Below, piece after piece: positions 20,036 through 46,653 of a stretch of 64,000 nucleotides of DNA; position 1 is the stretch's first letter, and each line of letters begins with the position of its first letter. Source of the stretch: an uncultured Lachnospiraceae bacterium (GTDB lineage: Bacteria; Bacillota; Clostridia; Lachnospirales; Lachnospiraceae). A program made the translations under genes and the position numbers. Under the pieces are notes generated by a model. That model was not told the origin of the DNA. It searched no databases and saw nothing but the letters and a program-made list of their open reading frames with translations. The stretch lies in NCBI GenBank assembly GCA_937877165.1, contig CALEFO010000194.1, positions 45,123 to 109,122 of the forward strand, written 5' to 3'.

Positions 20036-20055
20036 CGTCTTTTCCCTTTTCTACG

Positions 20056-20064: not shown

Positions 20065-20094
20065 TTCGCTATACACTTTTTTGGTAGGTCCCTC

Positions 20095-20445: not shown

Positions 20446-20496
20446 TGCCCTTTTTCACCTCGTCCATAACAAGACGACGATCGTTCTCATACGCCC

Positions 20497-20739: not shown

Positions 20740-20864
20740 GCCGCTTTCTCCCTCTCCCTCAAGATGGCCATCAGAACCGAATAAAACTCGCTTCCGGCCG
20801 GAATCATGATTCCTTCCATGGACTCTCTGACGGATCCGTCAGAGAGAATGTTTCGCACACTCAT
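20736..20864 (-). CDS. Small protein (42 aa, below the ORF-track cutoff), first gene of the minus-strand early operon
   Basis: Hand translation: MSVRNILSDGSVRESMEGIMIPAGSEFYSVLMAILREREKAA. RBS AAAGGAG. ATGA overlap with the next gene. Confidence 0.55.
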   Translation of the reverse strand: MSVRNILSDGSVRESMEGIMIPAGSEFYSVLMAILREREKAA

Positions 20865-20895
20865 TTCCCCTTCTCCTTTCGTGGTGCCTCCTCCG

Positions 20896-20904
20896 TGCTA
20901 TATA
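20896..20904 (+). promoter_or_regulatory. Extended -10-like element TGCTATATA
   Basis: Preceded by CG, as at 20054. Lies 55 nt upstream of the ATG at 20959. Confidence 0.4.
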
Positions 20905-20958
20905 CTTTCTTCACAGGCTCCTGCCAGAGCCGAGTATCTAAGGAAGGAGGTATATGTC

Positions 20959-21309
20959 ATGGAAGAATTGAAATCTTCGCATTTTAAATGGTCTGATGCT
21001 TCATCTCTCCATTGGAATGACCTGTCTGGTTCAGCTCTTACTTATGGAGATCTCCAGAAAACAACAGACGAGGTGTATTCCCTGTTGAAAGATTCCGCAG
21101 ATCAAGTCCCACAAGATTTATCTGCTTCTGCTGATTCCCTCGTGGAAACCTACGGATCTTTTGAAAATGTCAAAACCATCGGTGAATTCGTCACCGTTCT
21201 ACACGGTTTTGTACATTCCGATGCGTTTAACAAGCTCATCAGCTCCGCTTGCCGCGCTGCCATCGAGCAGACCGTCAAACACATCATCGACATTCTTTTT
21301 TCTCTTTGA
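20959..21309 (+). CDS. Hypothetical protein (116 aa)
   Basis: RBS AAGGAGGT then ATG. Track ORF 20806..21309 trimmed to this start. Confidence 0.65.
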   Translation: MEELKSSHFKWSDASSLHWNDLSGSALTYGDLQKTTDEVYSLLKDSADQVPQDLSASADSLVETYGSFENVKTIGEFVTVLHGFVHSDAFNKLISSACRAAIEQTVKHIIDILFSL

Positions 21310-23204: not shown

Positions 23205-24296
23205 ATGGCTAATTTAATGGATGCTGTGCGGTACTCTTCTCCTCAGGATCAGGTAAAAAAGCTGAAAAGCAAGGGACTGATCATTAATAACGCTGATTAC
23301 GCGGTTCACGAGCTTTCTGTTTATGGCTATTACAATATTATCAATGGCTATAAGAGGCCTTATACGCATATGGCCGATGGCGAACGGGTATATAATGTCG
23401 GAGTAACCTTTGAGCAAATTCACTCCCTGTTTCTTCTGGATCATAGTATTCGAAATTCCATCATGGCCGCTATGCTGGATCTCGAAGAAAGTCTTCGTGC
23501 CTCAACCGCAGATGTTATTGGGAAATTTATTTCTACAGATCATCATGAGTATCTGCAAAAAAATCATTATCAGGATCGGCCTTCCCGCATTGAGAAGTTT
23601 TCAACAGATGGCATCCTCCGTACACTTTCAGTGAATGCCAGATCCGGGAAAGATCCCATTCGATATTACTCTGATAAGTACGGAATTATTCCGCCATGGA
23701 TTCTCCTGAAGGGAACATACTTCAGCACTTTGATCAACTATATCCGCATATTAAAACCAAACGAAAAATCTGCTCTTATCCAGAAAATGTATAATATCAA
23801 CGACCAGAATGCTTCTATGCAATGCACCAAAACTTTTTTCAGCTCTGCCTTGTTTGTTTGCCTAGATTACCGCAATCGTGCTGCCCACGGCGGACGAATT
23901 TATGATTTTGATTCTGATCATGCCGAATACTTTGAAAAAGATAACGAATTTTATAATATTTTTCCAAATTTTTCATTCATCCAATCTCTGTCTGGAATAG
24001 GACGGCTCCTTGCCATACTTGCAATGTTTACCAATAGCAATGCTGCCTCGATTCTTGAAGAGTCTGTCAATGTACAAATAAGCCGCCATCTATCCTTTTT
24101 CCCAGATGACAAAGATGTTTTGGAATCGCTAATTCAGACGAAAATCAATGTAAATCGTGTTGTGTGGGTGTCCAGAAATGGACATATTTTTCACGTCAAT
24201 CCAACTTGCAGCGGCCTTACAGATCCAGTTCAAATTTCTATTGATAGTCCGGAACTCAAAAAATACACCCCCTGCAAGAGGTGCTGTAAAAAGTAA
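23205..24296 (+). CDS. Abi_2 (AbiD/AbiF-like) abortive-infection protein with C-terminal Cys/His-rich extension
   Basis: N-terminus KKLKSKGLIINNADYAVHELSVYGYYNIINGY and YRNRAAHGGRIY are Abi_2 hallmarks. C-terminus is HIFHVNPTCSGL...YTPCKRCC. The gene is AT-richer than the backbone. Confidence 0.75.
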   Translation: MANLMDAVRYSSPQDQVKKLKSKGLIINNADYAVHELSVYGYYNIINGYKRPYTHMADGERVYNVGVTFEQIHSLFLLDHSIRNSIMAAMLDLEESLRASTADVIGKFISTDHHEYLQKNHYQDRPSRIEKFSTDGILRTLSVNARSGKDPIRYYSDKYGIIPPWILLKGTYFSTLINYIRILKPNEKSALIQKMYNINDQNASMQCTKTFFSSALFVCLDYRNRAAHGGRIYDFDSDHAEYFEKDNEFYNIFPNFSFIQSLSGIGRLLAILAMFTNSNAASILEESVNVQISRHLSFFPDDKDVLESLIQTKINVNRVVWVSRNGHIFHVNPTCSGLTDPVQISIDSPELKKYTPCKRCCKK

Positions 24297-24456: not shown

Positions 24457-25893
24457 ATGAAATCCGTTGCGATTTACTGCCGCGTCTCCACACAGGAGCA
24501 GGCCGCAGAAGGCTACTCCATCGGAGAACAGCAGTCCCGGCTTACGAAATTTTGCGAGGCGCACGACTGGAAGGTCGCGCATGTCTACTCGGATCCCGGC
24601 TATTCCGGTGCCAAATTGCAGCGTCCGGCCATCCAGCAGCTCATCCGTGACTGCTCCTATGGTCTTTTTGATGCTGTCCTTGTATATAAGCTGGACCGTC
24701 TCTCCCGCTCCCAGAAGGATACCCTGTATCTCATCGAGGACATTTTCAACGCCAACCACGTCGGTCTTGTATCGATGTGTGAGAATTTCGACACGCAAAG
24801 TCCTTTCGGCCGGGCGATGATCGGCATTCTGTCCGTCTTTGCGCAGCTGGAGCGTGACCAGATCACGGAGCGCATGACAATGGGCCGGATCGGCCGTGCC
24901 AAGGCCGGTTATTTCTCCGGCGGATCACGTCCGCCGATCGGCTACACCTACGCCAAGGCCCCCGGATCGGACAAGCAGATCCTTGTCATCGATGATTACG
25001 AAGCTGTGCAGGTTCGCAGGGTCTTCGCCATGTTTCTTGATGGTTTCACACTGAAAGAGATCTGCCGCTATATGCACAATCACTATAAGACCCGATACGG
25101 TGACTGGTCCCACGTGTCTACGGTTTCACGAATCCTGCGGGACCGGATCTATATCGGCGAGGTCAGCTTCTCCGGCAAGTGGTACCGCGGCACGCATGAG
25201 CCTATCATCGATCAGGATACCTTCGACCGTGTGCAAAGGAAATACGACCTGTATCTCGGCACCACTGCGGGGACCTTCTCGCAGAATTTCAAGGGATCAC
25301 AGCTGCTTACAGGTATGGTTTTCTGCGGTCAGTGCGGGGCTCACTGTCACACGAAGTCATGGCGTAACCACGGCAAGCACGCGGCCCCTGACGCTCCCAT
25401 GAAAAGGGTATACCGCTGCTCTCATGGCGACGGCATCCGGATTCCTGTGCAGGATCTGGACCGGCTTGTCACCGCAGAGGTGCAAAAGCTCTCCATGGAT
25501 CCGGAGCTGATCCGCCGTGCTGCTGTTCCTGCTGCCGCTTCTGCCTCTTCTTCCGAAGCCATCGATGCAATCCGGTCACGCCTTGCCGATCTGCGCAGAC
25601 AGGAAAGCAAGCTGGTGGATCTGTACCAGATCGGCGGCATCGATCTGCAGATGATCAAGAGCCGGATGGACGATCTGCATCAGGAGCAGGAGAAGCTGTC
25701 CGCAAGCCTTACGGAAGAATCCTCTTCCCGCGCGGCGCTCTCTGCGGATGACGCCATCGATGCCCTGGCGTCCTTCCCGTCTGTCTTCTCCTCCGGCTCT
25801 TTGCAGGAGAAACGGCAGATTCTCCTGACACTGATTGATAAGATCGTGATCTATCCAGACCACATAGATATTCATTGGACCTTCACGGCATAA
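24457..25893 (+). CDS. Large serine recombinase (integrase)
   Basis: AIYCRVSTQEQ catalytic-serine motif, a resolvase domain, a recombinase domain, a Cys-rich zinc ribbon (CGQCGAHCH...YRCSHG) and a coiled coil. Confidence 0.95.
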   Translation: MKSVAIYCRVSTQEQAAEGYSIGEQQSRLTKFCEAHDWKVAHVYSDPGYSGAKLQRPAIQQLIRDCSYGLFDAVLVYKLDRLSRSQKDTLYLIEDIFNANHVGLVSMCENFDTQSPFGRAMIGILSVFAQLERDQITERMTMGRIGRAKAGYFSGGSRPPIGYTYAKAPGSDKQILVIDDYEAVQVRRVFAMFLDGFTLKEICRYMHNHYKTRYGDWSHVSTVSRILRDRIYIGEVSFSGKWYRGTHEPIIDQDTFDRVQRKYDLYLGTTAGTFSQNFKGSQLLTGMVFCGQCGAHCHTKSWRNHGKHAAPDAPMKRVYRCSHGDGIRIPVQDLDRLVTAEVQKLSMDPELIRRAAVPAAASASSSEAIDAIRSRLADLRRQESKLVDLYQIGGIDLQMIKSRMDDLHQEQEKLSASLTEESSSRAALSADDAIDALASFPSVFSSGSLQEKRQILLTLIDKIVIYPDHIDIHWTFTA

Positions 25894-25927: not shown

Positions 25928-26590
25928 TTATTTATAGCAATTATCACATGTTCTTAAGCCATCAATGTGTTCAAAAAGATCTTCTTTTATATTTGCTCCC
26001 AGCGGGTCAAGTACAACATCTATTCCTTCTCTCCTTGCCAGCTTCGCCGCCGACACAAAATCACTATCTCCAGAAATCAGTACAATCTGATCCACCTGCT
26101 TCTTATATGCCAGTGATGCAATATCAAGGCCAATTTTCATATCTACGCCTTTTTGATCCACTTGTATCATAAAATCTTTTTCACCGACATCCGAAATTTG
26201 CATACTCCCATTGAACAATTTCTTTACGATATCAGGTCGCAATGTATACAGTGCCTGCGCATCCGCCAATTTTCCCATTCTCAATGCGACTTTCCTTTTC
26301 TTTTTTAATTCATTCAGGAAGTCTGTCATCCATGTATATAAGTCCGACTTTCCAAAGTCAACTGTTCGCTTCAGATACGGATGAAAAACCTTTTTACTCA
26401 TTGGCGGACAGTCATAATAGAAAATGCGATATAAGTCATGCTCGACCTTAGAATCACCATGTCTTTCGCGTAAATGCCTGTGACAATAACTTACCAGTTC
26501 ATCTGCCCGCTCTTTCGGGGGCAATTCACCTATTTTTGCCTGTGCACGTCTTCTGTAAAATCCCCCATCGACAAGAATTGCAGTTTTCAT
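25928..26590 (-). CDS. NYN-domain (LabA/DUF88-like) predicted ribonuclease
   Basis: AILVDGGF at the N-terminus and QKGVDMKIGLDIASLAYKKQVDQIVLISGDSDFVSAAKLARREG. AT-richer than the backbone. Confidence 0.8.
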   Translation of the reverse strand: MKTAILVDGGFYRRRAQAKIGELPPKERADELVSYCHRHLRERHGDSKVEHDLYRIFYYDCPPMSKKVFHPYLKRTVDFGKSDLYTWMTDFLNELKKKRKVALRMGKLADAQALYTLRPDIVKKLFNGSMQISDVGEKDFMIQVDQKGVDMKIGLDIASLAYKKQVDQIVLISGDSDFVSAAKLARREGIDVVLDPLGANIKEDLFEHIDGLRTCDNCYK

Positions 26591-26877: not shown

Positions 26878-26925
26878 GTGTCGAAGTGTTTGCAGGCTCT
26901 TTGATACCTGCAAACACCTAGACAC
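26878..26925. other. 48-bp imperfect dyad, candidate attP core for the serine integrase
   Basis: GTGTCgaaGTGTTTGCAGG-ctctttgata-CCTGCAAACACctaGACAC. 17 of 19 arm positions are complementary. Lies in non-coding DNA between the integrase and the lysis genes. Confidence 0.35.
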
Positions 26926-29729: not shown

Positions 29730-30014
29730 ATGAATATGCTTCGTTTTGAGTGGGATGAAAACAAAAACTCCATAAACAAAAAGAAACACGGAGTTTCCTT
29801 CGAAGAAGCTTCTTCCGTGTTCTATGATGACAATGCTCTTGTCATAGATGACCCGGATCATTCTATTGAGGAAGATCGTTTCATTATTCTCGGAAACAGC
29901 AGCTCCGGAAAGCTCCTCATCGTCTGCCACTGCTACCGTGAATCTGATTCCGTCATTCGGATTATCTCCGCAAGAAAAGCAACTTCCACCGAATCCGAAC
30001 AATACTGGAGGTGA
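29730..30014 (+). CDS. brnT: BrnT-family (DUF497) toxin
   Basis: FEWDENKNSINKKKHGVSFEEASSVFYD....IISARKAT is the BrnT signature. Confidence 0.85.
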   Translation: MNMLRFEWDENKNSINKKKHGVSFEEASSVFYDDNALVIDDPDHSIEEDRFIILGNSSSGKLLIVCHCYRESDSVIRIISARKATSTESEQYWR

Positions 30015-30244
30015 TATGTATGAGAAACGAATATGATTTCACGAATGCCCGGAAGAATCCTTATACCAAGAATCTCAAAAAGCAAATTACCATAAATATC
30101 AATGCTGATACGATTGATTATTTCAAACATCAGTCAGAAGAATCCGGCATTCCTTATCAGACACTGATCAACCTGTATCTGACTGATTGTGCCCAGCAGA
30201 AGCGTGAACTTCACATTGAATGGAAGAAAACAGCCACGGTATAG
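30011..30244 (+). CDS. brnA: BrnA-family antitoxin
   Basis: YDFTNARKNPY...ININADTIDYFK...GIPYQTLINLYL. Overlaps the brnT stop. Confidence 0.8.
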   Translation: MICMRNEYDFTNARKNPYTKNLKKQITININADTIDYFKHQSEESGIPYQTLINLYLTDCAQQKRELHIEWKKTATV

Positions 30245-30257
30245 TCCGCGGCTGCTT

Positions 30258-30413
30258 TCATTTCTCCTCGTCTGTCACACCCATCAGCTGATTCCATGTC
30301 AGTGCCGGATAATCCGTTGTTTTCCGATACCCGGCAAGAAGCGTTTTGACTTTCTTAAAGATATCCGTGGCCAGCGCCTTATGTCCGGAGCTGTCCAATA
30401 CTTCCTTTGCCAT
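30258..30413 (-). CDS. Small protein (51 aa) ending in the LTWNQLMGVTDEE motif
   Basis: Start set at MAKEV, which has the RBS AAGGAGG. The track ORF extends to 30449. Confidence 0.55.
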   Translation of the reverse strand: MAKEVLDSSGHKALATDIFKKVKTLLAGYRKTTDYPALTWNQLMGVTDEEK

Positions 30414-30423
30414 GTCCGCCTCC

Positions 30424-31179
30424 TTAGCCGAAGACTGCGGTATAGGCATCGTCCACGGCAGTCTGGATCTCCGTATTGGTCATTGTCTTCATGTCGGATG
30501 TCTTTACATACCCGCTGAGGTCAATGTCTGTATTGCCGATCTTCTCCCACTTCTTTTCTGCATTCAGCCAGATATACTCATCAAAGCTGTCATTCGCATC
30601 AGAATGTGTGTGCGCCACATACCGGATATGCAGCATTGTGTCCGGATTGGACGGCGCCGCAGTGGGAACCGCCGAGGATACGATAATATCCACTCCCGCC
30701 TTTCCTGCCATCGCATTGTTGATTGCCGTCTTCACCTCATCCGCCGTCTGGAACTTACTATCATTTGTAAGTCCGGACACCTTTGTTGGAATGGTGATGC
30801 TGACCTTCCTGCCAGAATCCGGAACCAGATCCGTTCCGTTGACTGTCACCCCGACAATTACATTCTTCTCCGCTCCGGACAGTTTCCCGATTGCCGTAGC
30901 ATTGTCTCCGATCTGCTTATACTTCGCTGCAGTCAGAAGGCCATCCGCCGTTTCCGTCGCTGCTCCATATTTCGTATCATTGTCCGGAATCGTGATTTCC
31001 ATCGGATCACCCACGGACGGGGTTAAAATCAGCTTATGCTTATCCTTGGAATCTTGCGACAGTACATAGGTTGTATTGTCATTCAGGGTGCTCCCCTTCA
31101 GTTTCTGGAAAAGGTAATTGACCAGATAAATCAGCTGGTCATAATCAATTCTCTTGTATTCCTGCTCCGCCATTGTCAT
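30424..31179 (-). CDS. Tail-fibre-like / distal tail protein (251 aa)
   Basis: Position in the tail module. Thr/Ser/Gly-rich, fibre-like composition. Confidence 0.55.
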   Translation of the reverse strand: MTMAEQEYKRIDYDQLIYLVNYLFQKLKGSTLNDNTTYVLSQDSKDKHKLILTPSVGDPMEITIPDNDTKYGAATETADGLLTAAKYKQIGDNATAIGKLSGAEKNVIVGVTVNGTDLVPDSGRKVSITIPTKVSGLTNDSKFQTADEVKTAINNAMAGKAGVDIIVSSAVPTAAPSNPDTMLHIRYVAHTHSDANDSFDEYIWLNAEKKWEKIGNTDIDLSGYVKTSDMKTMTNTEIQTAVDDAYTAVFG

Positions 31180-31505
31180 TCACCTCCGAAAATCTCTTTA
31201 AACTGTTTGTCCACAAGTTCCTTGATTTCTGAATTTGTAATCGTTTTTTCGCCATAATCTTCCAGTGTTTTCTCACCTTTGATTACAACACCATTGAGCT
31301 TCGGGATATTCCGCAGCTCTTCATAGTCCTTCGTGCCGCCTTCCAGATAGGCCTCTGTCGTTCCATTTACATCCGTAACCTTGAGTTTCGCGCCGCCTTC
31401 TACCTGCTCTACCGTGGCTTTCGGCGAAATTGCGTCTGTAATGGTTTCCTGTACCTCTTCTACCGGAATGATGGCTTCACTTCCGAAAAAGTCTCCCTCA
31501 TTCAT
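31176..31505 (-). CDS. Hypothetical tail-associated protein (109 aa)
   Basis: Start set at MNEGDFF, which forms an ATGA overlap with the upstream stop. Confidence 0.5.
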   Translation of the reverse strand: MNEGDFFGSEAIIPVEEVQETITDAISPKATVEQVEGGAKLKVTDVNGTTEAYLEGGTKDYEELRNIPKLNGVVIKGEKTLEDYGEKTITNSEIKELVDKQFKEIFGGE

Positions 31506-31819
31506 GGTGAAATCACCTCCTCCGTCAGACTTCTCGCTACATACCGTTTTACAACCGGTGTTTTCCAAGCCCGACCGTCATCCGTCAGGCCGTGCAGCTG
31601 GATTTCCATCCATCCCGGAGAAAAGAGCCCCGATTCCTTCTGATCCAGATCAATAATGATCAGCATGGATTCCGGTTTGATCTTCACATCCTCCATCCGT
31701 TTCTGAAGCAGTGTGCTTCCCTGCCGCAGATCCGCGCGCATGTTCACGGTATGTGTAAGCCATGACCGGTATGCCTGATTCAGCCGGAGAATGATCTTCG
31801 GCGTTGTGTATGGAATCAT
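31502..31819 (-). CDS. Hypothetical protein (105 aa)
   Basis: ORF packed tightly in the operon. Confidence 0.5.
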   Translation of the reverse strand: MIPYTTPKIILRLNQAYRSWLTHTVNMRADLRQGSTLLQKRMEDVKIKPESMLIIIDLDQKESGLFSPGWMEIQLHGLTDDGRAWKTPVVKRYVARSLTEEVISP

Positions 31820-32089
31820 TTAGTCCTCTTTTCTCTCCAAACGGAAATAGCAGTGTTCCGGATCTTCCGGAAGAAACATGACCGCAGCAAGCCGCATATG
31901 GTCATACTCTCCTGACACGCCGCCATTCGTCCGGATCACAATGTGCACCAGATTCTCATCTGCGAACTTCTTTACTGCCGCCAGTGCTTTCGCCTGCGGA
32001 AGCTTCAGCCCCAGCCGCGACATTGATGACTGCGGAAGAAGCTCATATTTCGTTCCGTCCAAAAGTGAAATTGTATCTGTCGTTTCCAT
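31820..32089 (-). CDS. Hypothetical protein (89 aa)
   Basis: Start set at METTDT, which has the RBS GGAGGT. Confidence 0.5.
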   Translation of the reverse strand: METTDTISLLDGTKYELLPQSSMSRLGLKLPQAKALAAVKKFADENLVHIVIRTNGGVSGEYDHMRLAAVMFLPEDPEHCYFRLERKED

Positions 32090-32138
32090 TGTTACCTCCA
32101 TAAATCACAGTGGCACTTTTCTGCTGTAGTTTTGTGCA

Positions 32139-32181
32139 TAAGAAAAGAGAGCGTTCCGGTTTTTCCCCATCTACGCTCTCT
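32139..32181 (-). terminator. Rho-independent terminator after the HicB-like gene
   Basis: Minus strand AGAGAGCGT-loop-ACGCTCTCT followed by TTTCTTAT. Confidence 0.5.
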
Positions 32182-32239
32182 ACTCTGATTTTCAATTTTT
32201 TTCATGTGTTACTGGATCTGCCGCTTGGAATAACCTGCG

Positions 32240-32434
32240 TCATTTCTGTCCCGAATCGTCTTTCAAATCATCCGGCTCATGTATTTTGATACCCTCTTCT
32301 ATTGCTGCCTCTATCCACTCTTTTTTCGCGTCTTCCGCATTGGAAAGCGCTGTCTCCATAGTCTCTCCGCACGTAATGCATCCCAGAAGATCCGGAAACG
32401 ACACAACATAACCGCCTTCTTCACGATCCTCCAT
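32240..32434 (-). CDS. Orphan HicB-like domain protein (64 aa)
   Basis: GGYVVSFPDLLGCITCGETMETALSNAEDAKKEWIE. A minus-strand TATAAT lies at 32461..32466. Confidence 0.7.
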   Translation of the reverse strand: MEDREEGGYVVSFPDLLGCITCGETMETALSNAEDAKKEWIEAAIEEGIKIHEPDDLKDDSGQK

Positions 32435-32470
32435 GATTTCCGGCCTCACTTTCCACAACTATTATAAGGG

Positions 32471-32821
32471 ATGTATCAGCATTCGTATAAGTCGGGATAT
32501 ACGAATGGGAAAGAAAGCGTTGGATTTGCGTCAAAAATATACAAAGTCACGCCACCAATATATGCAACTCAAGTTGCAATAGATGTATCCGATCTTCCGA
32601 ACTGCGATAGATATGTCATGTATGAATCTATCTCTTGTGAAATGCTCTCTGGTCTGCAATTTAACAACTGGAACACGTCAATGGATCGTGGTGCAGATAT
32701 AAGGTTCTCCTATAACAGCTCTACCAGACAGGTCATCGTCAAACTGAGTGGGTATCTGCTGTTCACATATGGCACTGACAAGCGGGAGCTGAGCTTTCGG
32801 ATACACTATTTTACGTTCTGA
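32471..32821 (+). CDS. Silent alternative tail-fibre C-terminal cassette 1 (inverted relative to the fibre gene)
   Basis: Begins HSYKSGYTNGK, ..FSYNSSTRQVIVK.., ends HYFTF. This parallels SYKSGYANKK, ..MSYNSSNGILTVK.. and FYCYYAA of the expressed tip. No functional RBS. Confidence 0.7.
   Translation: MYQHSYKSGYTNGKESVGFASKIYKVTPPIYATQVAIDVSDLPNCDRYVMYESISCEMLSGLQFNNWNTSMDRGADIRFSYNSSTRQVIVKLSGYLLFTYGTDKRELSFRIHYFTF
32482..32505 (+). repeat. Recombination-site-like dyad A: TTCGTATAAGTCGGGATATACGAA
   Basis: 8-bp perfect inverted arms. 22 of 24 positions match site C in inverted orientation. Confidence 0.7.
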
Positions 32822-32835
32822 TCGAACTGACACCC

Positions 32836-32859
32836 TTCGATAACGTCGGGTTATGCGAA
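32836..32859 (+). repeat. Recombination-site-like dyad B: TTCGATAACGTCGGGTTATGCGAA
   Basis: 21 of 24 positions match site C in inverted orientation. Lies 14 nt after the cassette 1 stop. Confidence 0.7.
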
Positions 32860-32875
32860 TGGTAGAAAGTACATT

Positions 32876-33160
32876 GTGGAGTCATTCAGCGTTTCTGGCT
32901 CAAGCAACAATATCGCGACGTATGATTTTGGAAAATATTTCAGCACATATGAAGAATTTTTGAAGCATGCAATTGTTGCCGTAGCCGGATTTCGCCTTAA
33001 CGGTGGAACCGACAGCGGGTCTGGCTATTATGTTTATGATGGTAAGGAACATACGTCGTTGTGCGGTCGAGTGAGGAATAGCGGCACTTCTATTACTGTT
33101 TCGCATTATCAGAACGGGGCTGTTGCCAATATCTGCAATTACGTTCTCATTTTCCAGTAA
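32876..33160 (+). CDS. Silent alternative tail-fibre C-terminal cassette 2 (coding frame actually opens at site B, 32837)
   Basis: The frame through site B reads SITSGYANGRKYIVESFSVSG..., continuous with the track ORF. Stop codons lie just upstream of site B and there is no RBS. Confidence 0.7.
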   Translation: MESFSVSGSSNNIATYDFGKYFSTYEEFLKHAIVAVAGFRLNGGTDSGSGYYVYDGKEHTSLCGRVRNSGTSITVSHYQNGAVANICNYVLIFQ

Positions 33161-33170
33161 TGCAACGATA

Positions 33171-34172
33171 TTACGCTGCGTAGTAGCAATAGAACGTTCC
33201 GGTAACGGAACCGGCGCCACCAGACTCACCGATTGCGTTATTGCACTGAAGATTCTTGACAGTCAGAATTCCATTTGAACTGTTGTATGACATCGAGCAG
33301 GTTACTGAACTGTTTGCCTCTGTACCTTTGTAATACGTCTCTGGATTGCCCCAATGGTTATCCGTTCGCGAAACCCGTGAGGGTACAAAAGCAAAGTTTT
33401 CAATTGTGAAACTCTGGAATCCTGGAATAGATGCAGCTGAGTATGTACCGCTTCCGCCGGTTCCGATGGCAACTCTGTGTAGCTTTTTGTTCGCATAACC
33501 CGACTTATACGAAGCGCTCTCCGTGTTCACCCGGCCGTCCGCGTCGCTCACGCCCGCATTGTATGCCCCTGCGCCGGAAACATATCCCCCACCGCTATGA
33601 TACCCTGCAGGAATCGCAACATTACCGTTTCCCGTTGTCTCTCCGGTCCATGCGCCGTTGTTCGGCATTGTGCCGGTCACATTCTCCTGTTCCGCGGACG
33701 AGAAGGTTTTCCCACTCAGGACGTCCGCTGCTGCCGCATTCCCGGTGGGATTTCTAAAAGGGGTTACAGTTCCACCCTGAGAGGTCTTGAATCCCCATTT
33801 TCCATCTGCATCTGTCCCGAAATACAGCCCATTCAGCTGATCGGAATGCTTTTTGCCGATCCTGGCATCCAGAACATAGCCTTCTGCATTCGTCGTCTCG
33901 TTGTTGGCGATTGCCGCAAATGCGGCAGACTTCATATCCGTGAACCACTTTGCAATCTTTCCCATGAGCGTTCCCAGCGTTTCGGTGCTGGCCACATTGG
34001 TCCTCTCCGCTGCCGCTGCGAACGTCACCGTGTTCTTGCTGGCATCTCCGGCTGCAGTCTGCATGGTCTGCAACTCCTTGTCGATGGCCTTGAAATTGTC
34101 GTTGAAGTCCTCCACATTGACCGGATCCTTTCCTTCCGGCAGCTTCATCCGCAGTAAATCCGTCAGTTTCAT
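33171..34172 (-). CDS. Tail fibre protein (constant N-terminal part plus currently expressed C-terminal tip)
   Basis: Start set at MKLTDLLRMKLPEGKDPVNVEDFNDNF, which has the RBS AAAGGTGGAAGG. Follows the XkdU-like gene. Confidence 0.8.
   Translation of the reverse strand: MKLTDLLRMKLPEGKDPVNVEDFNDNFKAIDKELQTMQTAAGDASKNTVTFAAAAERTNVASTETLGTLMGKIAKWFTDMKSAAFAAIANNETTNAEGYVLDARIGKKHSDQLNGLYFGTDADGKWGFKTSQGGTVTPFRNPTGNAAAADVLSGKTFSSAEQENVTGTMPNNGAWTGETTGNGNVAIPAGYHSGGGYVSGAGAYNAGVSDADGRVNTESASYKSGYANKKLHRVAIGTGGSGTYSAASIPGFQSFTIENFAFVPSRVSRTDNHWGNPETYYKGTEANSSVTCSMSYNSSNGILTVKNLQCNNAIGESGGAGSVTGTFYCYYAA
33490..33513 (-). repeat. Recombination-site-like dyad C inside the fibre gene (minus-strand read TTCGTATAAGTCGGGTTATGCGAA)
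   Basis: Encodes S-Y-K-S-G-Y-A-N at the constant/variable junction. Confidence 0.7.
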
Positions 34173-34268
34173 TCCTTCCACCTTTCTGCCGCATTCGCGG
34201 CGCTGTGCAAAGAAAACGCTGTGCAGAAGGTTCTCCCCTCGCATAGCGTTTTCTCACAATACCCTGAT

Positions 34269-34991
34269 TCAGTTCTTTGCTTCCTTGATCTGCGTTACTG
34301 TATTCCAACTGTTCTGCTTCAGACTGCGCCAGCTCGGCTGAACAGCTGCCAGAGAATCCCAGGACACATACGGAATCTTCTGATTGATCCGAAGGCCATC
34401 CCATGTGTATGCGGTCAGATCATTCCAGATCTTTCCTGCCAGTTCATCCCAGATCACATACCGATACGTGATTTCATAAGCAAGATGCGCCGGTTTCAGC
34501 TCATCCAGGAGCCTGCGGAACAGCTTGATATGATTGGGAATTCCATATCCTCCGACAAAAATCACCGTGAACTTATATTCTGCCGCAGTCTCTTCCACCA
34601 TCGCCTCTGTTCCGGTGACGCTCTGCGCAATCTGGGCGATTCTTGCCGGTGTCAGCATCTCTGTGCCGGACAGCCTGGCCATGATCAGCGCACGTCTGGC
34701 TTCATCCGTTGCTTCCTCGCTGATTTCCAGCGCCAGCAGCTTCTCCCAGTGTTCCAGATCCCACGTTGCAAGGCTTGGGATTCCCTGCTCCATCAGGCTG
34801 TCCATCAGTGCATGCGCACGTCCGATTTCATAGCCCTGTGCCTCATAAATGGCCGCCATCTCTTCGAACTCCGGAAGATACGGCGGCACATACTTCGTCA
34901 GATCCACAAATCGAACGGGCAGTTCGAAAGCCTTCTTTTCAGCCTCGTCCTGCCCGTACATCTTTTCACCATAGAGGATTTCGCCCTGCAT
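34269..34991 (-). CDS. XkdU/YmfQ-like (DUF2313) baseplate/tail protein
   Basis: 240 aa between the baseplate-J-like gene and the fibre gene, as in PBSX-like tails. Confidence 0.7.
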   Translation of the reverse strand: MQGEILYGEKMYGQDEAEKKAFELPVRFVDLTKYVPPYLPEFEEMAAIYEAQGYEIGRAHALMDSLMEQGIPSLATWDLEHWEKLLALEISEEATDEARRALIMARLSGTEMLTPARIAQIAQSVTGTEAMVEETAAEYKFTVIFVGGYGIPNHIKLFRRLLDELKPAHLAYEITYRYVIWDELAGKIWNDLTAYTWDGLRINQKIPYVSWDSLAAVQPSWRSLKQNSWNTVTQIKEAKN

Positions 34992-34994
34992 CTG

Positions 34995-35420
34995 CTACTC
35001 CTCCGTTTCCGTCACTCCCATGAGCCGGTTCCATGTAAACGCTGTCGGATCTCCCTTGATCTCCACGTTGATGGCATTGATCTCCTTTTCGACCTTCACC
35101 AGCTCATTCTGCACATCATTGATGTCATCCGCCTCCACCTCATCGCCCTGGTACTCATAGCTGATGTAGATATAAGGCTCCGAAGATTCCACATGGATCT
35201 GCCTCGCCCATGGTCTGCCGGGCGGCGCAGCTGCCGTAAATGGCAGTTCTGTTCCAGACTGCTTCGGCCCTGTGCAGACGGTCAGCGTATCATCATCCAC
35301 ATTGTCATGAATCAGCTCGCCCTCATACACACCGCCTTCCGGCATTTCTACCGTTTCCTCAATGATGTAGGCGCTTCCCTGCGTTTTATTCTTTTTCTCA
35401 ATGAACTTTCTGACTTCCAT
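34995..35420 (-). CDS. Hypothetical tail protein (141 aa) ending in the FTWNRLMGVTETEE motif
   Basis: ATGA overlap with the baseplate J stop. Confidence 0.6.
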   Translation of the reverse strand: MEVRKFIEKKNKTQGSAYIIEETVEMPEGGVYEGELIHDNVDDDTLTVCTGPKQSGTELPFTAAAPPGRPWARQIHVESSEPYIYISYEYQGDEVEADDINDVQNELVKVEKEINAINVEIKGDPTAFTWNRLMGVTETEE

Positions 35421-36457
35421 CAGGTCACCACCTCCAGCGTCACGGTCCCGGCAACCGCAATCTGTTCCTCTGTAAGCTCCACGTTCTCAGCCTTTCCGTT
35501 CAGCTTCAGCTCCGAATAATCCGTAACGCCTTCTGTCTCCAGCAGAATCTTTCCAATCATGGAGAGATTGACGCTTCCGGCCTCATAGGCGTTTGCTGCC
35601 AGATAGCGTATGAGTGCCAACTGGAACTTACTGCTGACGCTCGCGCTGTTCTCGCCTTTTCCGATCGAAATCTTCGCTGTGACATTAACCGGAAGCTCTG
35701 CCGCTGATGCAACGGTCACGGCTGCACCAACCGGCCGGACAGAATCAATATATTCCTGCGTCTCCCGGACCAGCTCTGCGGATGCCGCCTTCTTTTCCGT
35801 GCTGGCAATCACAACCTTGACCGTGCCCGGCCCGCTGGCCAGCGGATAAATCTTTGCTGCTCCGACTCCGGTCACAGACATCGCCCAGTTATAATAATCC
35901 TGTGCATTTCCACTTGCCGCAGGCTTGCGCAGCAGCTCCAGATATCTGGTCCGGAACGCCTCGGTATCTTCCTCATCTGTTCCGGCGTCCAGCAGCTCCG
36001 TAAGGGTCGCGGACCTTAATCCGTTGATATATTCCATCGGGATCAGGTATCCTGCCAGTGCGTTTCCTGCTGCCCCAGCAGTCTCACATTCCAGCTCATA
36101 GACACCCGGTGAAAGCTTTGCCGTTACCGCCAGATTCATTTCATCATTGTTGAACCGCTCACCGATCGGAATATTCAGCTGCTCCGGAACGAACACCGCC
36201 TTCCATCTCGCCGGCGTTGCCTCCTTCGGCGTGATTCCACGCTCTGCCGCTCTTTTGACCAGATATTCTCTGGATGCCGTATCGGCAAACATTTCCTTCT
36301 CCAGCGTCTCCATGTCCATATACAGGAGCTGGTGCTCAATCGCGGTCGGGGCCAGCGCATCATGAATCACGGATCCTTCCCGCTTGTCGAATTTCGCAGG
36401 CACCTTATCCATCATTCTCTGCAAAATACCGGAGAAAGACGTATCAAACAGTGACAT
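35420..36457 (-). CDS. Baseplate J-like protein (XkdT-like)
   Basis: Start set at MSLFDTSFSGILQRMMDKVP, which has the RBS AAAGGAG. Size and position are typical. Confidence 0.8.
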   Translation of the reverse strand: MSLFDTSFSGILQRMMDKVPAKFDKREGSVIHDALAPTAIEHQLLYMDMETLEKEMFADTASREYLVKRAAERGITPKEATPARWKAVFVPEQLNIPIGERFNNDEMNLAVTAKLSPGVYELECETAGAAGNALAGYLIPMEYINGLRSATLTELLDAGTDEEDTEAFRTRYLELLRKPAASGNAQDYYNWAMSVTGVGAAKIYPLASGPGTVKVVIASTEKKAASAELVRETQEYIDSVRPVGAAVTVASAAELPVNVTAKISIGKGENSASVSSKFQLALIRYLAANAYEAGSVNLSMIGKILLETEGVTDYSELKLNGKAENVELTEEQIAVAGTVTLEVVT

Positions 36458-42258: not shown

Positions 42259-43563
42259 TTATGCGACCTTGACCGTCATATACAGCTGTTCCATCGTTCC
42301 TGTTACGGTAATGGCATCTGTAATGACAACCGCGTTCTTGCTCTCGCCCTGTGCAACAGTGATGTTCTCCGACTCAAAGTTCTCAATCGCACGTCTGCGC
42401 TCCAGACTGTTGTGCAAGTCAACCACATCATTCCAGAGCGACACGCGACCGGATTCATCGTTCGGAACCTTGCCCAGGTACTTCGTATTGAACAGCGTGG
42501 CGATGTCGTTTCCGACCTGATCACAGACGCGCACCGTCTTGTTATCCTGGAAGATCTCGCCCTTCTCATCCGTGAAGGTAACAAGGGAATTGATATCCCG
42601 AAGGACACGGACATCTCCAGCCACATTGTGGAAAATCAGCTTTCCGGCATCCAGCGCGTTCTTCAGTCCCGACTGCGTATAGGACACATCAACGGTATAT
42701 TCTCCATCGTACAGGGAATTCATCAGCGAATCCTCGACGGCGCATCCTGCTTCTGCACCGGTCACCCAGTACACCAGAGAAGCCTCATCCGCGCCGGTGT
42801 CCTTCACCTTGTTCTCTACGTCAATGATGCCTTCATAGTCTCCCTCGTAGTGGTACAGAACCGTCTGGAACTTCACGCCGATGTCATCGCGCATGCGCCT
42901 GGTGAAATTCGCTACCAGCTTCTTCGTGGTATCGTCCGTCGTCGCAACGCCCATCACGTTGAAGGAATAGCTCTCAATCGCGTCCAGATAAGCCTGATAG
43001 CTGTCTCCGGTTACACTGGCATTCGTTCCGCCTTCAAGGCTCTTCCCTGCCGTCTCTTCCAGATCCACGCCCGTCTTCCAGGTCACATAATCGTTATCCT
43101 TCAGGTCGGCCGCCTTCCCTACGGTCTGCATGTCCACCTTCACCGTGCCGAGGTACAGCGTGACATCGAACAGGGAAGGATTGTCCGCATTCGCCGCAAT
43201 CACATATTTCAGATCATTGCCGCGGATACCGGAATACTTCGCCGTCGCATTGTCCGAGGTTGCCTTTCCTCCGCCGCTCTGCAGGTTGTACGCATACAGC
43301 GTCGTAATATGCAGGAACAGCTCCCGGACAGGCCGGAGCTTCTCCGACGTGTAGTCATACCCGAAGATCTGCCTGGAATTCTTCAGGAAATCATCCTGCG
43401 TCACCTTGAACACACCTTCCGGTCCCCAGTCGAGGAGAAGCGGCATCGTCGCAACGCCGCGCCCGGAAAGACTGTTTCCTGCTGCCTTTACCGAAACAAA
43501 ATTGATGTATGTGCCCGGAAGCGGCTTGTTCTGCGTTGTAAACGTGCCTCCACCCAATGCCAT
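42259..43563 (-). CDS. Tail sheath protein (XkdK-like), full length
   Basis: 434 aa with the N-terminus MALGGGTFTTQNKPLPGTYINFVS, typical of phage sheath proteins. Confidence 0.9.
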   Translation of the reverse strand: MALGGGTFTTQNKPLPGTYINFVSVKAAGNSLSGRGVATMPLLLDWGPEGVFKVTQDDFLKNSRQIFGYDYTSEKLRPVRELFLHITTLYAYNLQSGGGKATSDNATAKYSGIRGNDLKYVIAANADNPSLFDVTLYLGTVKVDMQTVGKAADLKDNDYVTWKTGVDLEETAGKSLEGGTNASVTGDSYQAYLDAIESYSFNVMGVATTDDTTKKLVANFTRRMRDDIGVKFQTVLYHYEGDYEGIIDVENKVKDTGADEASLVYWVTGAEAGCAVEDSLMNSLYDGEYTVDVSYTQSGLKNALDAGKLIFHNVAGDVRVLRDINSLVTFTDEKGEIFQDNKTVRVCDQVGNDIATLFNTKYLGKVPNDESGRVSLWNDVVDLHNSLERRRAIENFESENITVAQGESKNAVVITDAITVTGTMEQLYMTVKVA

Positions 43564-43564
43564 A

Positions 43565-43753
43565 TCATTTCACCTTACCTTTCCTGTACTCCTGCACAGC
43601 CTCATCGGCTTCCTGCAGGGTGTATTTCCTGTTCCTGTCCAGTACCGCCGCAACGATGTCCCTGTGCGCCTCAAACCGCTTGGAATCCATCAGCTGAGCA
43701 CCGGTGAAGCGCTGCGGGGCGTCCACTTCGGTCTTTCTTTTTCTGACCGCCAT
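43565..43753 (-). CDS. Small hypothetical protein (copy 2 of 816..1004)
   Basis: Identical ORF at +42749. Confidence 0.6.
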   Translation of the reverse strand: MAVRKRKTEVDAPQRFTGAQLMDSKRFEAHRDIVAAVLDRNRKYTLQEADEAVQEYRKGKVK

Positions 43754-44196
43754 CCTTCCACCTCCAATTCTGTTTTCTGCTTCTCCATCATCACGGCTTC
43801 CGGAGCGGTCCGGATCTCATCCGCCTGAACTCTGGCCGTCATGACAAGCACACCGTCTGAAACCGCCGTCTGCTTGTCCGTTGTCCTTACCAGGCGGTCC
43901 CCGGCCCGGAAGATTTCCAGACAGTCGAACAGCCTCTCCGCCGCGTCATTCATTTCCGCATTCGGTTCCGACGGGCTGCTGACTTCACTTTCCCTGGGAA
44001 AATAGCAGATATTCATCAGCCATGTTCTGCGGTACCTTCTCCAGAAATAGAGATTCTTCCCTGGTGTCACGCAGCGGATATAGAAGCAGGGTCCTTGAAA
44101 GCCCTGCTCGCTGTTCTCCGTCCGGATGGGATATCCCTCACCGAATTCTTCATAAATGGCATTGACCATGCCGTTTATCAACTGTTCTGTCGTCAT
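43690..44196 (-). CDS. Neck/tail-completion protein (copy 2 of 941..1447)
   Basis: Identical ORF at +42749. Confidence 0.55.
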   Translation of the reverse strand: MTTEQLINGMVNAIYEEFGEGYPIRTENSEQGFQGPCFYIRCVTPGKNLYFWRRYRRTWLMNICYFPRESEVSSPSEPNAEMNDAAERLFDCLEIFRAGDRLVRTTDKQTAVSDGVLVMTARVQADEIRTAPEAVMMEKQKTELEVEGWRSEKERPKWTPRSASPVLS

Positions 44197-44666
44197 CCGA
44201 TATGCCTCTTCAGAAACTGTTCAATCTTCTTCTCCAGAAGGGCCGGCGTCTTGTTCTGTGTTTCCAGCTCCGCCTCCTGCAGCATCATTCTTCCTTCCAC
44301 CCATCTCCCATTGACCGCCCTGTGTCCGTATTCCACATAGGGGCCATAGTAAACCGGATTGGTGATCTCAATCACATAGCAGCTGCCTTCTTTCCGCACA
44401 TGGAGCTTGTTTGCATAGGCCGCAATGTTCTTGACATCTTTTCCCCCCGTCCAGCCGCGGACAAGCGTTCCTCCCGTCTTTGGAGATTTGGGCGGATACA
44501 CGCCTTTTGGTGTACGCGGAATTACCTGCTCCAGAAGGAGCGCCGCGATATTCTTCGCACAGGATTCATAGAACTTCTCCAGCTCCATTCCCTGCCCATC
44601 CGTCAGATCATGAAGCTGCTTCTGCAGCCGTTTCAGATCTCCCGCGTCTGCTTCTCCAAGGCTCAT
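44193..44666 (-). CDS. HK97 gp10-family protein (copy 2)
   Basis: Identical ORF at +42749. Confidence 0.75.
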   Translation of the reverse strand: MSLGEADAGDLKRLQKQLHDLTDGQGMELEKFYESCAKNIAALLLEQVIPRTPKGVYPPKSPKTGGTLVRGWTGGKDVKNIAAYANKLHVRKEGSCYVIEITNPVYYGPYVEYGHRAVNGRWVEGRMMLQEAELETQNKTPALLEKKIEQFLKRHIG

Positions 44667-45028
44667 GCGTAATCCTCCAAAGGCTCCAGCATGTACTCGC
44701 AGTGCGTCTGATAGGATGCCGGGATTCCGGACCGCTTCCAGTCGCTCACGGCACCGGTTGCCCGTACCACATGGACCCTGCTGCCCGGACGGATCCTCAC
44801 ATCCGGGGCAGTAAAGAGTTTTACCGACTGCGTGACCGTATCGTTTCCCGATCCTTCTGCCGACTGCGCAATGCTGGAAAAGGAAAGACGGCAGGGAATG
44901 TCCGTGTAGACCTCCCGCACCGTCTTTTTCGTTCTGTGTGTCATTTCATCCGCAGTGTCGGTCTGTTCGTATACCGTACAGGTGTCTTCGAACAGACTGT
45001 TCACCGCCTTCTGGTTTCTCACCAGCAC
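44663..45028 (-). CDS. Head closure / adaptor protein (copy 2)
   Basis: Identical ORF at +42749. Confidence 0.65.
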   Translation of the reverse strand: MLVRNQKAVNSLFEDTCTVYEQTDTADEMTHRTKKTVREVYTDIPCRLSFSSIAQSAEGSGNDTVTQSVKLFTAPDVRIRPGSRVHVVRATGAVSDWKRSGIPASYQTHCEYMLEPLEDYA

Positions 45029-45423
45029 ATTTTTCGGTATCGTAACAGCTCATCCTTTCTTCCGCTCAGAAGATCCTCAATCATCGCTTTCACCCGGACC
45101 GCCGGACTGCTGGCATCTCCTGCGTTATAGCTGATCTGCGTATCTCCGATCTTCAGGGACGATACTCCCGACTCAATGCCAAAGAGTTCATCCAGCTTCC
45201 CGGTGTTATACAGATCCTTCAGGAAATGCCCGCACGCCATATCTGCCATGACATAGCGAAGGCCGTCCGGAACATCCGGCAGGTGGCAGAAATTGCGGAT
45301 ATACTGATCTGCCCGAAGGAGCGCGTCTTCCAGTGCTTCCTTCGTCTCTTCGCTGTCATCGACTGTAAAGCCTTTCTGCTTCAGGGTCCGCTTTGTGAGG
45401 CGGAGCATTTCATACATATCCAC
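45019..45423 (-). CDS. gp6-like head-tail connector (copy 2)
   Basis: Identical ORF at +42749. Confidence 0.65.
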   Translation of the reverse strand: MDMYEMLRLTKRTLKQKGFTVDDSEETKEALEDALLRADQYIRNFCHLPDVPDGLRYVMADMACGHFLKDLYNTGKLDELFGIESGVSSLKIGDTQISYNAGDASSPAVRVKAMIEDLLSGRKDELLRYRKMCW

Positions 45424-45437
45424 ATCTGCCTCCCGTC

Positions 45438-46640
45438 TTATCCTCTGGAAATAATGCGGGCAATCGGAATTGCCTTGTGGGAAATCGCATTCTCACCATC
45501 ATTCACCAGGGACCAGTTCGCGCCGGTCTTCAGCTCTGCATCGGTCGGGCTGTTCGTTGCCTGAGAACTCTTCGTGTAAGAAATTCCCGCTACGCTGACC
45601 GCGTTTCTCTTGCGGCTGATCAGCGTATCCTCGCCGCCCGCCGTCTTGGCATCACGCACCATCTCATAGGGTACCTTCGCTCCCAGATCCTCGAAGCCGA
45701 TTGCGCCGTCACCAAGGATGTAGGAGGTATATTTCGTTCCTGCTGCCAGGGACAGAACATATTCACCCGCTGCAATGTCCTTGATGCTCTTCGCTACCGT
45801 TGCCTTCAGGACCTGCGCACCGGTCGGAGTGCCGTCCTCAATGACTTCCAGCGCACCCTCTGCAGATCTCACCGTCCGCACATAGGTTGCCGCTGCATCT
45901 TCGGTCGGCATGCTATCATCGACCACTACCAGCTTGCCGTTCCAGGTGCCGAGGGAAAGATCTCTCTCAATTCCCTGCGGATCCGTGTACTTCAGGTAGG
46001 TCAGAAGCTTTAAGTTCTCCAGATTGGTGGAAATCGCGGAGTGCACGAACACCAGGCTGAACTTCTGCTTGTGATCGCCGCAGGCCTTCTGAACCGCCTT
46101 GTTCAGGGTGGTTGCCTCCATCACGTTGTGATCCGTCGCGGATACATCCAGCGTGTGCTTGTCCACGAACTCTGCGTTCGCCTTCTTGATGTCACCGGTT
46201 CCGGTTGCCGACATTGCAAAAATGCCATCCAGAATCGCCAGAAGCGTATTCTGATCCACCGTGTTCCAGTACTCCACCAGCTGTGCACGGACATTGGCCA
46301 TGAAATCCACGCCGCCGGTCACATCATAGGAGAAGTCCGCCTCGGTCCATCCGTGCATGCGGCCGTAGGTAAACACACCCTGCTCGAAGGTCTTCGTCCG
46401 ATCGGTCTTCACGTCCGTCTGGCCGTCATAGTTCTGCGGCTCTCCGCCGAGAAGTCCGAAGTAAGGCAGCACCGCATAGACACTTCCCGTCTGGGAATTG
46501 TCCTTGAATGCCTCCCGGAGCCTTGCGTCTCCCGTGATCGCGCGGGAAGAGCGCAGCTTATTCAGCCGGACATTCGGGACTGCACTCATATACTTGCCGA
46601 ATGCCTGCTCATTGAAACTCTTTGCGTCAAATTTACCCAT
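45438..46640 (-). CDS. Major capsid protein (copy 2)
   Basis: Identical ORF at +42749. Confidence 0.8.
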   Translation of the reverse strand: MGKFDAKSFNEQAFGKYMSAVPNVRLNKLRSSRAITGDARLREAFKDNSQTGSVYAVLPYFGLLGGEPQNYDGQTDVKTDRTKTFEQGVFTYGRMHGWTEADFSYDVTGGVDFMANVRAQLVEYWNTVDQNTLLAILDGIFAMSATGTGDIKKANAEFVDKHTLDVSATDHNVMEATTLNKAVQKACGDHKQKFSLVFVHSAISTNLENLKLLTYLKYTDPQGIERDLSLGTWNGKLVVVDDSMPTEDAAATYVRTVRSAEGALEVIEDGTPTGAQVLKATVAKSIKDIAAGEYVLSLAAGTKYTSYILGDGAIGFEDLGAKVPYEMVRDAKTAGGEDTLISRKRNAVSVAGISYTKSSQATNSPTDAELKTGANWSLVNDGENAISHKAIPIARIISRG

Positions 46641-46653
46641 TGTTCATCCTTTC

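Follow-up and report, generated by a model that had tools for sequence, protein, structure and literature searches.

Invertible tail fibres are a classic means by which temperate phages hedge their bets on host range, and to our knowledge few of them have been documented outside the phages of enterobacteria. In the G segment of Mu (invertase Gin), the C segment of P1 (Cin) and the Pin system of e14, inversion exchanges the C-terminus of the fibre on a constant N-terminus, the silent alternative lies inverted downstream, and the switch serves to alter the host range; there are two alternatives, genes for fibre assembly are situated inside the segment, a small serine invertase with a Fis-dependent enhancer is encoded next to it, and the sites are 26 bp long with a 2-bp crossover. 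The Min system of p15B possesses several inverted cassettes with six crossover sites, by which one constant part receives different C-termini, and an adjacent serine invertase, Min. The R64 shufflon applies the multiple-inversion logic to alternative C-termini of a conjugative pilus adhesin (the PilV tip), and its tyrosine recombinase, Rci, is encoded adjacent to the segment. The present report concerns a fibre gene with two silent tip cassettes and three 24-bp sites in a phage genome from an uncultured Lachnospiraceae bacterium (assembly GCA_937877165.1, contig CALEFO010000194.1, positions 45,123 to 109,122 of the forward strand); this whole stretch of 64,000 nucleotides is called the window, and all positions refer to it. 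The locus is very probably a site-specific multiple-inversion ("shufflon-like") switch of the C-terminal domain of the fibre.

The Rin shufflon of Bifidobacterium prophages, for which prophage and virion assemblies were compared, belongs to Gram-positive temperate phages of the gut and combines a constant N-terminus of a siphovirus receptor-binding protein (RBP) with several inverted cassettes, whose tips are 6–30% identical; a phage-encoded tyrosine invertase flanks the cassettes, and the rix sites have 11 bp (PMC6109161). At a second bifidophage locus, which has genes of unknown function and no flanking recombinase, two genomes show a single inversion of about 500 bp at a repeat of 8 bp, and the authors proposed an invertase acting in trans (PMC6109161). 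The tail-fibre shufflon of BV01-like phages, also temperate and from the gut, has three cassettes, a flanking recombinase and a 10-bp motif, and all configurations were seen in reads (PMC13596623). In bacterial genomes, tail-fibre genes were enriched among the targets of gene-altering inversions according to a systematic survey, in which viruses were not scanned (PMC9881135).

The window represents a circular phage genome of 42,749 bp read about 1.5 times, with positions 1..21251 repeated exactly at 42750..64000. The fibre gene lies on the minus strand and encodes 333 amino acids (aa); the ATG at 34172, which is preceded by AGGTGGAAGG, is the likely start, and gene callers also take an ATG at 34244. 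The constant N-terminal part (33514..34172, minus; residues 1–220) is 85–100% conserved in relatives with other tips. It ends at site C (33490..33513, minus), TTCGTATAAGTCGGGTTATGCGAA, which is composed of TTCGTATAA-GTCGGG-TTATGCGAA and encodes SYKSGYAN (residues 221–228) at the boundary of the constant and variable parts. The C-terminal domain expressed here, tip E, follows (33171..33489, minus; 105 aa and stop), giving the frame ...ESA-SYKSGYAN-KKLHRV...YCYYAA*. Downstream, on the opposite strand, are cassette 1 (32506..32821, plus; 104 aa and stop), an alternative tip which is silent here and expressed after inversion, and cassette 2 (32860..33160, plus; 99 aa and stop), a silent alternative tip. 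Cassette 1 opens at the outer site A (32482..32505, plus), TTCGTATAAGTCGGGATATACGAA, composed of TTCGTATAA-GTCGGG-ATATACGAA with two mismatches to C; cassette 2 opens at the middle site B (32836..32859, plus), TTCGATAACGTCGGGTTATGCGAA, composed of TTCGATAAC-GTCGGG-TTATGCGAA with four mismatches to C. Spacer and right arm of site B are identical to those of site C, and the left arm has diverged, with five of nine positions matching the canonical arm. The consensus of the sites consists of 9-bp inverted arms, TTCGYATAA and TTATRCGAA, around a 6-bp centre.

Both cassettes share one plus-strand frame, and stop codons precede each of them (*GMYQH-SYKSGYTN-GKESVGF...HYFTF* in cassette 1, F*SN*HP-SITSGYAN-GRKYIV...LIFQ* in cassette 2). 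In cassette 1 an ATG is found four codons 5' of the site, with AAGGGA directly abutting. A constant 5' part is thus followed by inverted, promoterless 3' cassettes which share a short site and the same reading phase. This is in good agreement with an earlier note on this DNA, made from the sequence alone, which had described three 24-bp sites, perfect 8-bp inverted arms in site A, stop codons just 5' of site B, and in-phase frames of equal length: the sites, arms and stops are all present, and the frames amount to 113, 112 and 107 aa for the fibre tip, cassette 1 and cassette 2, site peptide included. Its "shared islands" among the three tips did not hold up, since pairwise BLASTP gave a best E of 0.14 (for the island SYNSS..VK) and E > 4 for the other pairs; a tip fold common to all three was rejected as far as sequence similarity is concerned, the pairwise values being not significant. 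When cassette 1 was the query of a homology search, the silent open reading frame (ORF) was the sole match. In 100 dinucleotide shuffles of the window no site was matched at up to 3 mismatches (0 expected by chance), and when up to 8 mismatches were allowed over the whole genome, nothing site-like appeared besides A, B and C.

In comparison with Mu, P1 and e14, the locus has three tips, a 24-bp site of 9-6-9 layout, no adjacent invertase and a Gram-positive host. The arrangement of several inverted cassettes with crossover sites and one constant part is that of p15B, but no homologue of Min was found here. With R64 it has in common the multiple-inversion logic and also a feature of the sites: in R64 the spacer and one arm are conserved while the other arm varies, and the B-type sites described below are similar in this respect. 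The sfx sites of R64 have a 7-bp spacer and an unrelated sequence. The identities of Rin tips are comparable to the non-significant similarity of the tips here, but no phage-encoded invertase of the Rin kind was found. The second bifidophage locus is the nearest precedent for an inversion in phage structural genes without an invertase; the present locus differs from it, and from the BV01-like shufflon, by 24-bp dyad sites and by a target which is clearly the fibre tip. The earlier note had likened the locus to Mu, P1, p15B and R64; the logic of the switch is indeed the same, but the absence of an adjacent invertase, which the note did not address, sets it apart. The locus is therefore not filed under the Mu G, P1 C, p15B Min, R64, Rin or BV01-like systems.

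Assemblies for comparison were found via contigs encoding exact copies of neighbouring small proteins and were mapped to the window; those with at least 99% identity were regarded as the same phage. The segment from A to C (32482..33513; 1,032 bp) was observed in both orientations. It is flipped with respect to both flanks in seven assemblies (L024, L026, L028, L029, L030, L038, L040), and nine (L019, L023, L025, L027, L031, L033, L041, L042, L044) have the orientation of the window at one or both junctions; the segment itself is 99.9–100% identical among the assemblies. At each junction the flanking alignments overlap by exactly the 24-bp site. One inverted junction reads constant part / TTCGTATAAGTCGGG / ATATACGAA / cassette 1, and the other, precisely reciprocal to it, left flank / TTCGTATAAGTCGGG / TTATGCGAA / tip E, sites A and C being the junctions of the observed inversion. 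The constant part is joined to cassette 1 in L024, L038 and L040; the latter two contain the complete fused gene, an ORF of 356 aa which equals P0124 of a public protein collection. The displaced tip E forms a silent ORF of 117 aa (MYQH, SYKSGYAN and tip E), which is also present in the collection (P0127). Exact protein look-ups matched only the longer forms beginning at the upstream ATG, not the forms of 327, 332 and 333 aa. The constant-to-cassette-1 junction had no match in IMG/VR, a collection in which the phage itself is not contained.

The left flank exists in two haplotypes of single-nucleotide polymorphisms, each of which was found in both orientations; the inversion has therefore occurred at least twice on near-identical backgrounds. 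The exchange between A and C is precise, reciprocal and repeated on near-identical genomes, and both orientations with their reciprocal junctions occur naturally. A fusion in frame of the constant part to a new tip by inversion between C and A had been predicted in the earlier note, and this product is present in the seven assemblies, with the junctions as predicted. Several contigs of about 1 kb have one of their ends precisely at the outer border of a site (L019 and L030, both of 1,072 bp, L039 and L059), which is consistent with branching of the assembly graph at the switch; L019 and L030 also both end at position 32442.

In sum, the constant part of the fibre ends at site C, and the promoterless cassettes downstream on the opposite strand open in frame at A and B. 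Recombination of C with A inverts 1,032 bp, so that cassette 1 takes the place of tip E and tip E is parked as a silent cassette; recombination of C with a B-type site would lead to expression of the middle cassette, as deduced for this phage from a sister lineage. The exchange would occur in the 6-bp centre between the 9-bp arms, by a recombinase from the host or from another element, not by the integrase of the phage.

For the middle site, the predicted invertible segment from B to C (32836..33513; 678 bp) would bring cassette 2 to expression, with the product constant...TTCGTATAAGTCGGGTTATGCGAATGGTAGAAAG. This product was not found for the phage in look-ups of the public protein collection. 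B-type sites, defined by a left arm TTCGNWAAC with canonical spacer and right arm, recur in three arrays (L017/L034, L020/L021 and L061). Between L061 on the one hand and L062 and L063 on the other, the cassette array is 99% identical, and a segment of 723 bp is inverted between a B-type site and the in-gene site; the junctions are reciprocal, and the cassette that becomes expressed is the homologue of cassette 2 of the window (P0007). This event shows that B-type sites can recombine, and gives no rate. Since the backbones of L061 and L062 differ, the constant region being 89% identical, the event testifies to a past inversion and does not prove that switching continues. The inversion between C and B foreseen in the earlier note was thus not recovered for this phage itself, but the sister lineage shows that a B-type site has recombined precisely with the in-gene site. 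L067, the contig encoding P0123, is a relative with the parental type of order and says nothing on this inversion.

Taken together, the junctions delimit the crossover. Those of the A×C inversion confine the exchange to site positions 1–15 and those of the B×C inversion to position 10 or beyond; it follows that the crossover lies at positions 10–15, and strand exchange would accordingly fall in the 6-bp centre (GTCGGG). Five arrays (window, L017, L020/L021, L034, L061) have GTCGGG as the spacer of all their sites, and in three others (L001, L016, L060) all sites have GTCAGG; identity within each phage is to be expected if partner sites must match in the region of crossover. ATAA and TTAT border the asymmetric 6-bp spacer in the 9-6-9 layout. 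Inverted arms, an asymmetric spacer identical between partners and a crossover in the spacer are the features of core-type sites, and the site is compatible with tyrosine recombination without proving it. When site C with two bases added on each side was compared with the dif sites of Staphylococcus aureus and Bacillus subtilis, the arms agreed at 9+8 or 8+8 of 22 positions and the centre at 0 of 6, as scored against published Firmicutes dif sequences. Site C is the best dif-like 28-mer of the genome; the likeness was noticed post hoc and palindromic arms are not independent evidence, which counts against it. The resemblance may be taken as a lead towards a Xer-family tyrosine recombinase, and not as a demonstration.

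In the search for the recombinase, Pfam and PHROG scans were run on the longer ORFs for head and packaging, on the principal ORFs of the other regions and, from 10.9 to 34.3 kb, on all ORFs that reach 60 aa; the tail genes were covered through Pfam annotations on the contigs of relatives. One recombinase was detected, a large serine recombinase of 478 aa (24457..25893, plus) with the Pfam domains Resolvase, Recombinase and Zn_ribbon_recom and a PHROG match to integrase. It adjoins the phage attachment site, attP, about 6.6 kb from the invertible segment; it is assigned the role of integrase, and it is not the preferred candidate for the invertase. These scans of the genome ORFs revealed no further recombinase and no tyrosine recombinase (Phage_integrase domain). 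A gene for a small serine invertase of the Gin, Cin, Min or Pin kind was not found at or in the invertible region, nor was a tyrosine recombinase next to the cassettes, where R64 has Rci and the bifidophages have Rin. Among candidates tried and dismissed was a recombinase hidden among unannotated ORFs, for which nothing appeared even at E values up to 5. A diversity-generating retroelement was also rejected, there being no reverse-transcriptase match in the Pfam scans, and the cassettes are unrelated, not near-identical repeats. A search of IMG/VR for homologues of the integrase did not return the L001 contig, the method being too insensitive for this to mean anything.

One alternative would be a self-contained system, in which the phage's own large serine recombinase performs both integration at groEL and inversion of the fibre segment. 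It is the only recombinase found in the genome, its catalytic domain also matches the PHROG family "DNA invertase", and L061, which has the same sites, retains a homologue of 91% identity; furthermore, the variable spacer position 13 lies in the central dinucleotide of the 24-bp site, as crossover by a serine recombinase would need. However, attP (26886..26917, minus), as aligned from attL, attR and attP of L046, L041 and the window, has a core TATCAAAGAGCCTGC (26892..26906), which matches the 3' end of groEL, between perfect 11-bp inverted repeats, GTGTTTGCAGG and CCTGCAAACAC; written as GTGTTTGCAGG-TATCAAAGAG-CCTGCAAACAC, it has no half-site similarity to TTCGTATAAGTC. The integrase as invertase was rejected on account of this unrelated att site. 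Large serine recombinases use long, specific half-sites and are strongly directional, which likewise speaks against the enzyme; nothing site-like occurs near attP, and in most of these phages the central dinucleotide would be CG, a palindrome, which gives a serine recombinase no polarity of the site. This arrangement is therefore considered quite improbable, and a similarly small probability is given to a phage protein which was not recognized as a recombinase.

Since there is only one recombinase and attP is unlike the inversion site, the inverting enzyme most likely acts in trans and comes from the host or from some other resident element; the estimate for supply in trans is the total of those for a Xer-like enzyme and for a small serine invertase acting in this way. 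A small serine invertase of the Hin/Gin/Mpi type from the host or from another prophage would be of the class used by every classical switch of phage tail fibres (Gin, Cin, Min, Pin), and global action in trans has a precedent in Mpi of Bacteroides, to judge from its mention in a paper on bifidophages (PMC6109161). The dyad symmetry of the site, its length of about 24 bp and its start with TTC would also suit such an enzyme, since hix and gix sites start likewise. Compared with hix and gix, the site here has 24 bp, and its central dinucleotide is CG, a palindrome, or in the GTCAGG phages CA; the palindromic CG is an argument against a small serine invertase. Sites of the Hin family, 26 bp long and built of 12-bp half-sites, depend on an enhancer together with Fis, and there is no adjacent invertase gene bearing an enhancer. 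The 9-6-9 layout, with ATAA and TTAT around a conserved asymmetric spacer of 6 bp, is a better fit to core sites of tyrosine recombinases, and B-type sites retain the spacer and one arm, like R64 sfx sites. A small serine invertase in trans is thus regarded as unlikely, whereas a Xer-like tyrosine recombinase acting in trans is given an even chance; enzymes outside these classes take up the remainder.

A more specific form of the Xer reading would be that switching is outsourced to a host recombinase of the Xer family, i.e., the enzymes of chromosome dimer resolution or a Xer-like paralogue, which read the 9-6-9 sites as dif-like. For their integration, IMEX elements such as CTXphi make use of XerCD, and the host-Xer reading would make this locus a counterpart of such use in programmed inversion. 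In this specific form the proposal is held only tentatively and is rather doubtful.

The related phages provide further information on the sites and on the pool of tips. Among proteins with a constant part of 85–93% identity, at least 10 different tips occur, all joined at residue 229, and several lineages have the same layout with different cassettes; the search of relatives for the 24-bp site, which the earlier note had suggested, showed that sites and layout are kept although the cassettes differ. An identical copy of site A is present at the same position in L017 and L034. In P0014 and P0007 the expressed tip, again joined at residue 229, is a homologue of cassette 2 (47–52% identity). Silent cassettes of other arrays were likewise encountered in expressed form: that of L016 as P0011 (100% identity), the outer cassette of L017 as P0009 with the predicted SYKSGYTNG junction (97.5%), that of L060 as P0013 (157/161) and tip Y of L001 as P0004 (94%). 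The order on the L001 contig is constant-X-Y(inverted)-site-constant(inverted, 105 bp), and from the inverted 105-bp copy of the constant region it follows that both junctions exist in one sample.

L034 and L037 are mosaics with respect to window positions 32129..32505: the left flank, together with site A itself, has 99% identity, the cassette array is of the L017 type, and the constant region is only 85% identical to that of the window. It appears from this mosaicism that the sites also mark the borders of horizontal exchange of whole cassette arrays. On L059, a contig of 1,063 bp, a site variant (54..77) has the spacer GTCTGG and a stop right after it (SYKSGYAK*); possible readings are a site that lacks a cassette and an array in decay. 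A search with the site pattern found the L001 contig as the only one in IMG/VR, none in GTDB representative genomes and three contigs in a metagenome collection. More distant relatives of the fibre, from metagenome-assembled genomes of Lachnospiraceae and other Clostridia, had no site.

AlphaFold predicts tip E as an all-beta domain which begins directly after the site peptide (pLDDT 82–95), and cassette 2 as an all-beta domain with a moderate mean pLDDT of 78. The nearest neighbours of the latter in the PDB are an atadenovirus fibre head and the C-terminal domain of a phage tailspike, with borderline E values of 2e-3 and 0.011, and, more weakly, the tip of the R2 pyocin fibre, also of borderline significance; the model of the full fibre had no significant structural neighbour in the PDB. 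Structure prediction had been proposed in the earlier note as a check for a shared fold; tip E and cassette 2 are both predicted to be all-beta domains of about 100 aa. The tips presumably bind a receptor, a role suggested by their C-terminal position in the fibre and by the class of fold.

A number of points weigh against the reading of the locus as a programmed switch for receptor-binding tips. The evidence is at the level of assemblies, not of reads; assemblies from ENA (ERZ) and Logan (SRR) may share samples, so that independent observations of the inverted state number seven at most. Coexistence of the orientations within a sample is indicated only indirectly, by the chimeric contig L001 and by contigs which stop at sites (L019, L030, L039). 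To these must be added the missing B×C product of this phage, the different backbones of L061 and L062 and the diverged left arm of site B. No gene for a dedicated invertase came out of the scans of the phage genome, and the role in receptor binding is deduced from where the tips lie in the fibre and from fold matches that are weak.

Another explanation would be that there is no programmed switch at all, the orientations being fixed strain differences due to rare general or illegitimate recombination at short inverted repeats, or artefacts of assembly. The level of the evidence, the origin of most contigs from related samples, apparently of one project, and the diverged backbones of the B×C pair are in favour of such an explanation. 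However, identical junctions were obtained in several samples and from two assemblers (SPAdes NODE contigs and Logan contigs), the L001 contig holds both junctions, and the presence of both flank haplotypes in both orientations argues against fixed strain differences. Repeats of 24 bp with two mismatches, or with 15 bp of identity in the case of B×C, are very short for homologous recombination. Moreover, a dyad site in frame, with co-varying spacer, is kept in at least six arrays of unrelated cassettes, and in A-type sites the silent left arm has been conserved although coding does not require it. The absence of a programmed switch is thus very improbable, and a shufflon-like switch is the reading adopted here.

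The phage is a temperate myophage of the PBSX type from an uncultured host of Lachnospiraceae type in gut-type metagenomes. The PBSX affinity, which had been stated in the earlier note, is borne out for the tail module by Pfam families on the genes of relatives: sheath, tube, tape measure, YqbQ, DUF2577, Baseplate_J and Phage_Mu_Gp48 are situated directly 5' of the fibre. The head and packaging module is of the SPP1 type (portal, terminase, scaffold), and holin and endolysin genes are present for lysis. In several assemblies the prophage is inserted at the 3' end of the host groEL; the host GroEL has 97% identity to entries named Lachnospiraceae bacterium or Bacillota bacterium. The attachment region is contained in contigs joined to the host (L046, from 3685; L041, about 17330..17490). 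The phage brings its own groEL 3' end and a similar downstream hairpin, by which the gene should be restored upon integration. Among INPHARED phages, the fibre protein had no match by tblastn, and the region 30000..36000 only one by blastn (196 bp, 70%), outside the fibre gene.

Several other genes of the phage may be mentioned. The integrase gene is flanked by an Abi_2 abortive-infection-like gene (23205..24296, plus) and a NYN-domain gene (25928..26590, minus), and the early region encodes a fusion of a SNF2 helicase and a N6_N4 DNA methylase (866 aa; 14504..17104, minus). Directly adjoining the invertible segment is a truncated orphan gene for a HicB-like antitoxin (32240..32458, minus; 64–72 aa versus 121 aa in relatives); another HicB-like gene, of full length and with a 27-nucleotide match to the truncated one, lies near the terminase genes (11346..11741, minus). 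Four conserved genes of about 89–93, 105, 109–130 and 249–251 aa (30424..32101, minus) come after the switch in all relatives; they occupy a position like that of xkdW/xkdX in PBSX, their matches are PHROGs of unknown function only, and they might be further fibre components or chaperones common to all tips. Between genes 3' of the fibre and the lysis genes, on the opposite strand, a BrnT/BrnA toxin-antitoxin pair is found (29730..30244, plus).

The locus adds a natural example from a Lachnospiraceae prophage to the invertible tail fibres, with three tips, a 24-bp site, a crossover of 6 bp and signs of repeated switching in the wild, and the switch explains the assembly breaks at the fibre gene in these phages. 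With at least 10 tip cassettes at one junction in related phages, the system would also be a route for horizontal exchange of receptor-binding modules, and the site could become a portable handle to engineer or predict tropism. The unusual trait is that no cognate invertase was found in the genome of the phage. If the host-Xer reading is true, this would be a phage tail-fibre shufflon without a phage-encoded invertase; and if an enzyme of the host carries out the switching, the host range of the prophage would be partly under the control of the host and would be varied in the lysogen by the host's own machinery.

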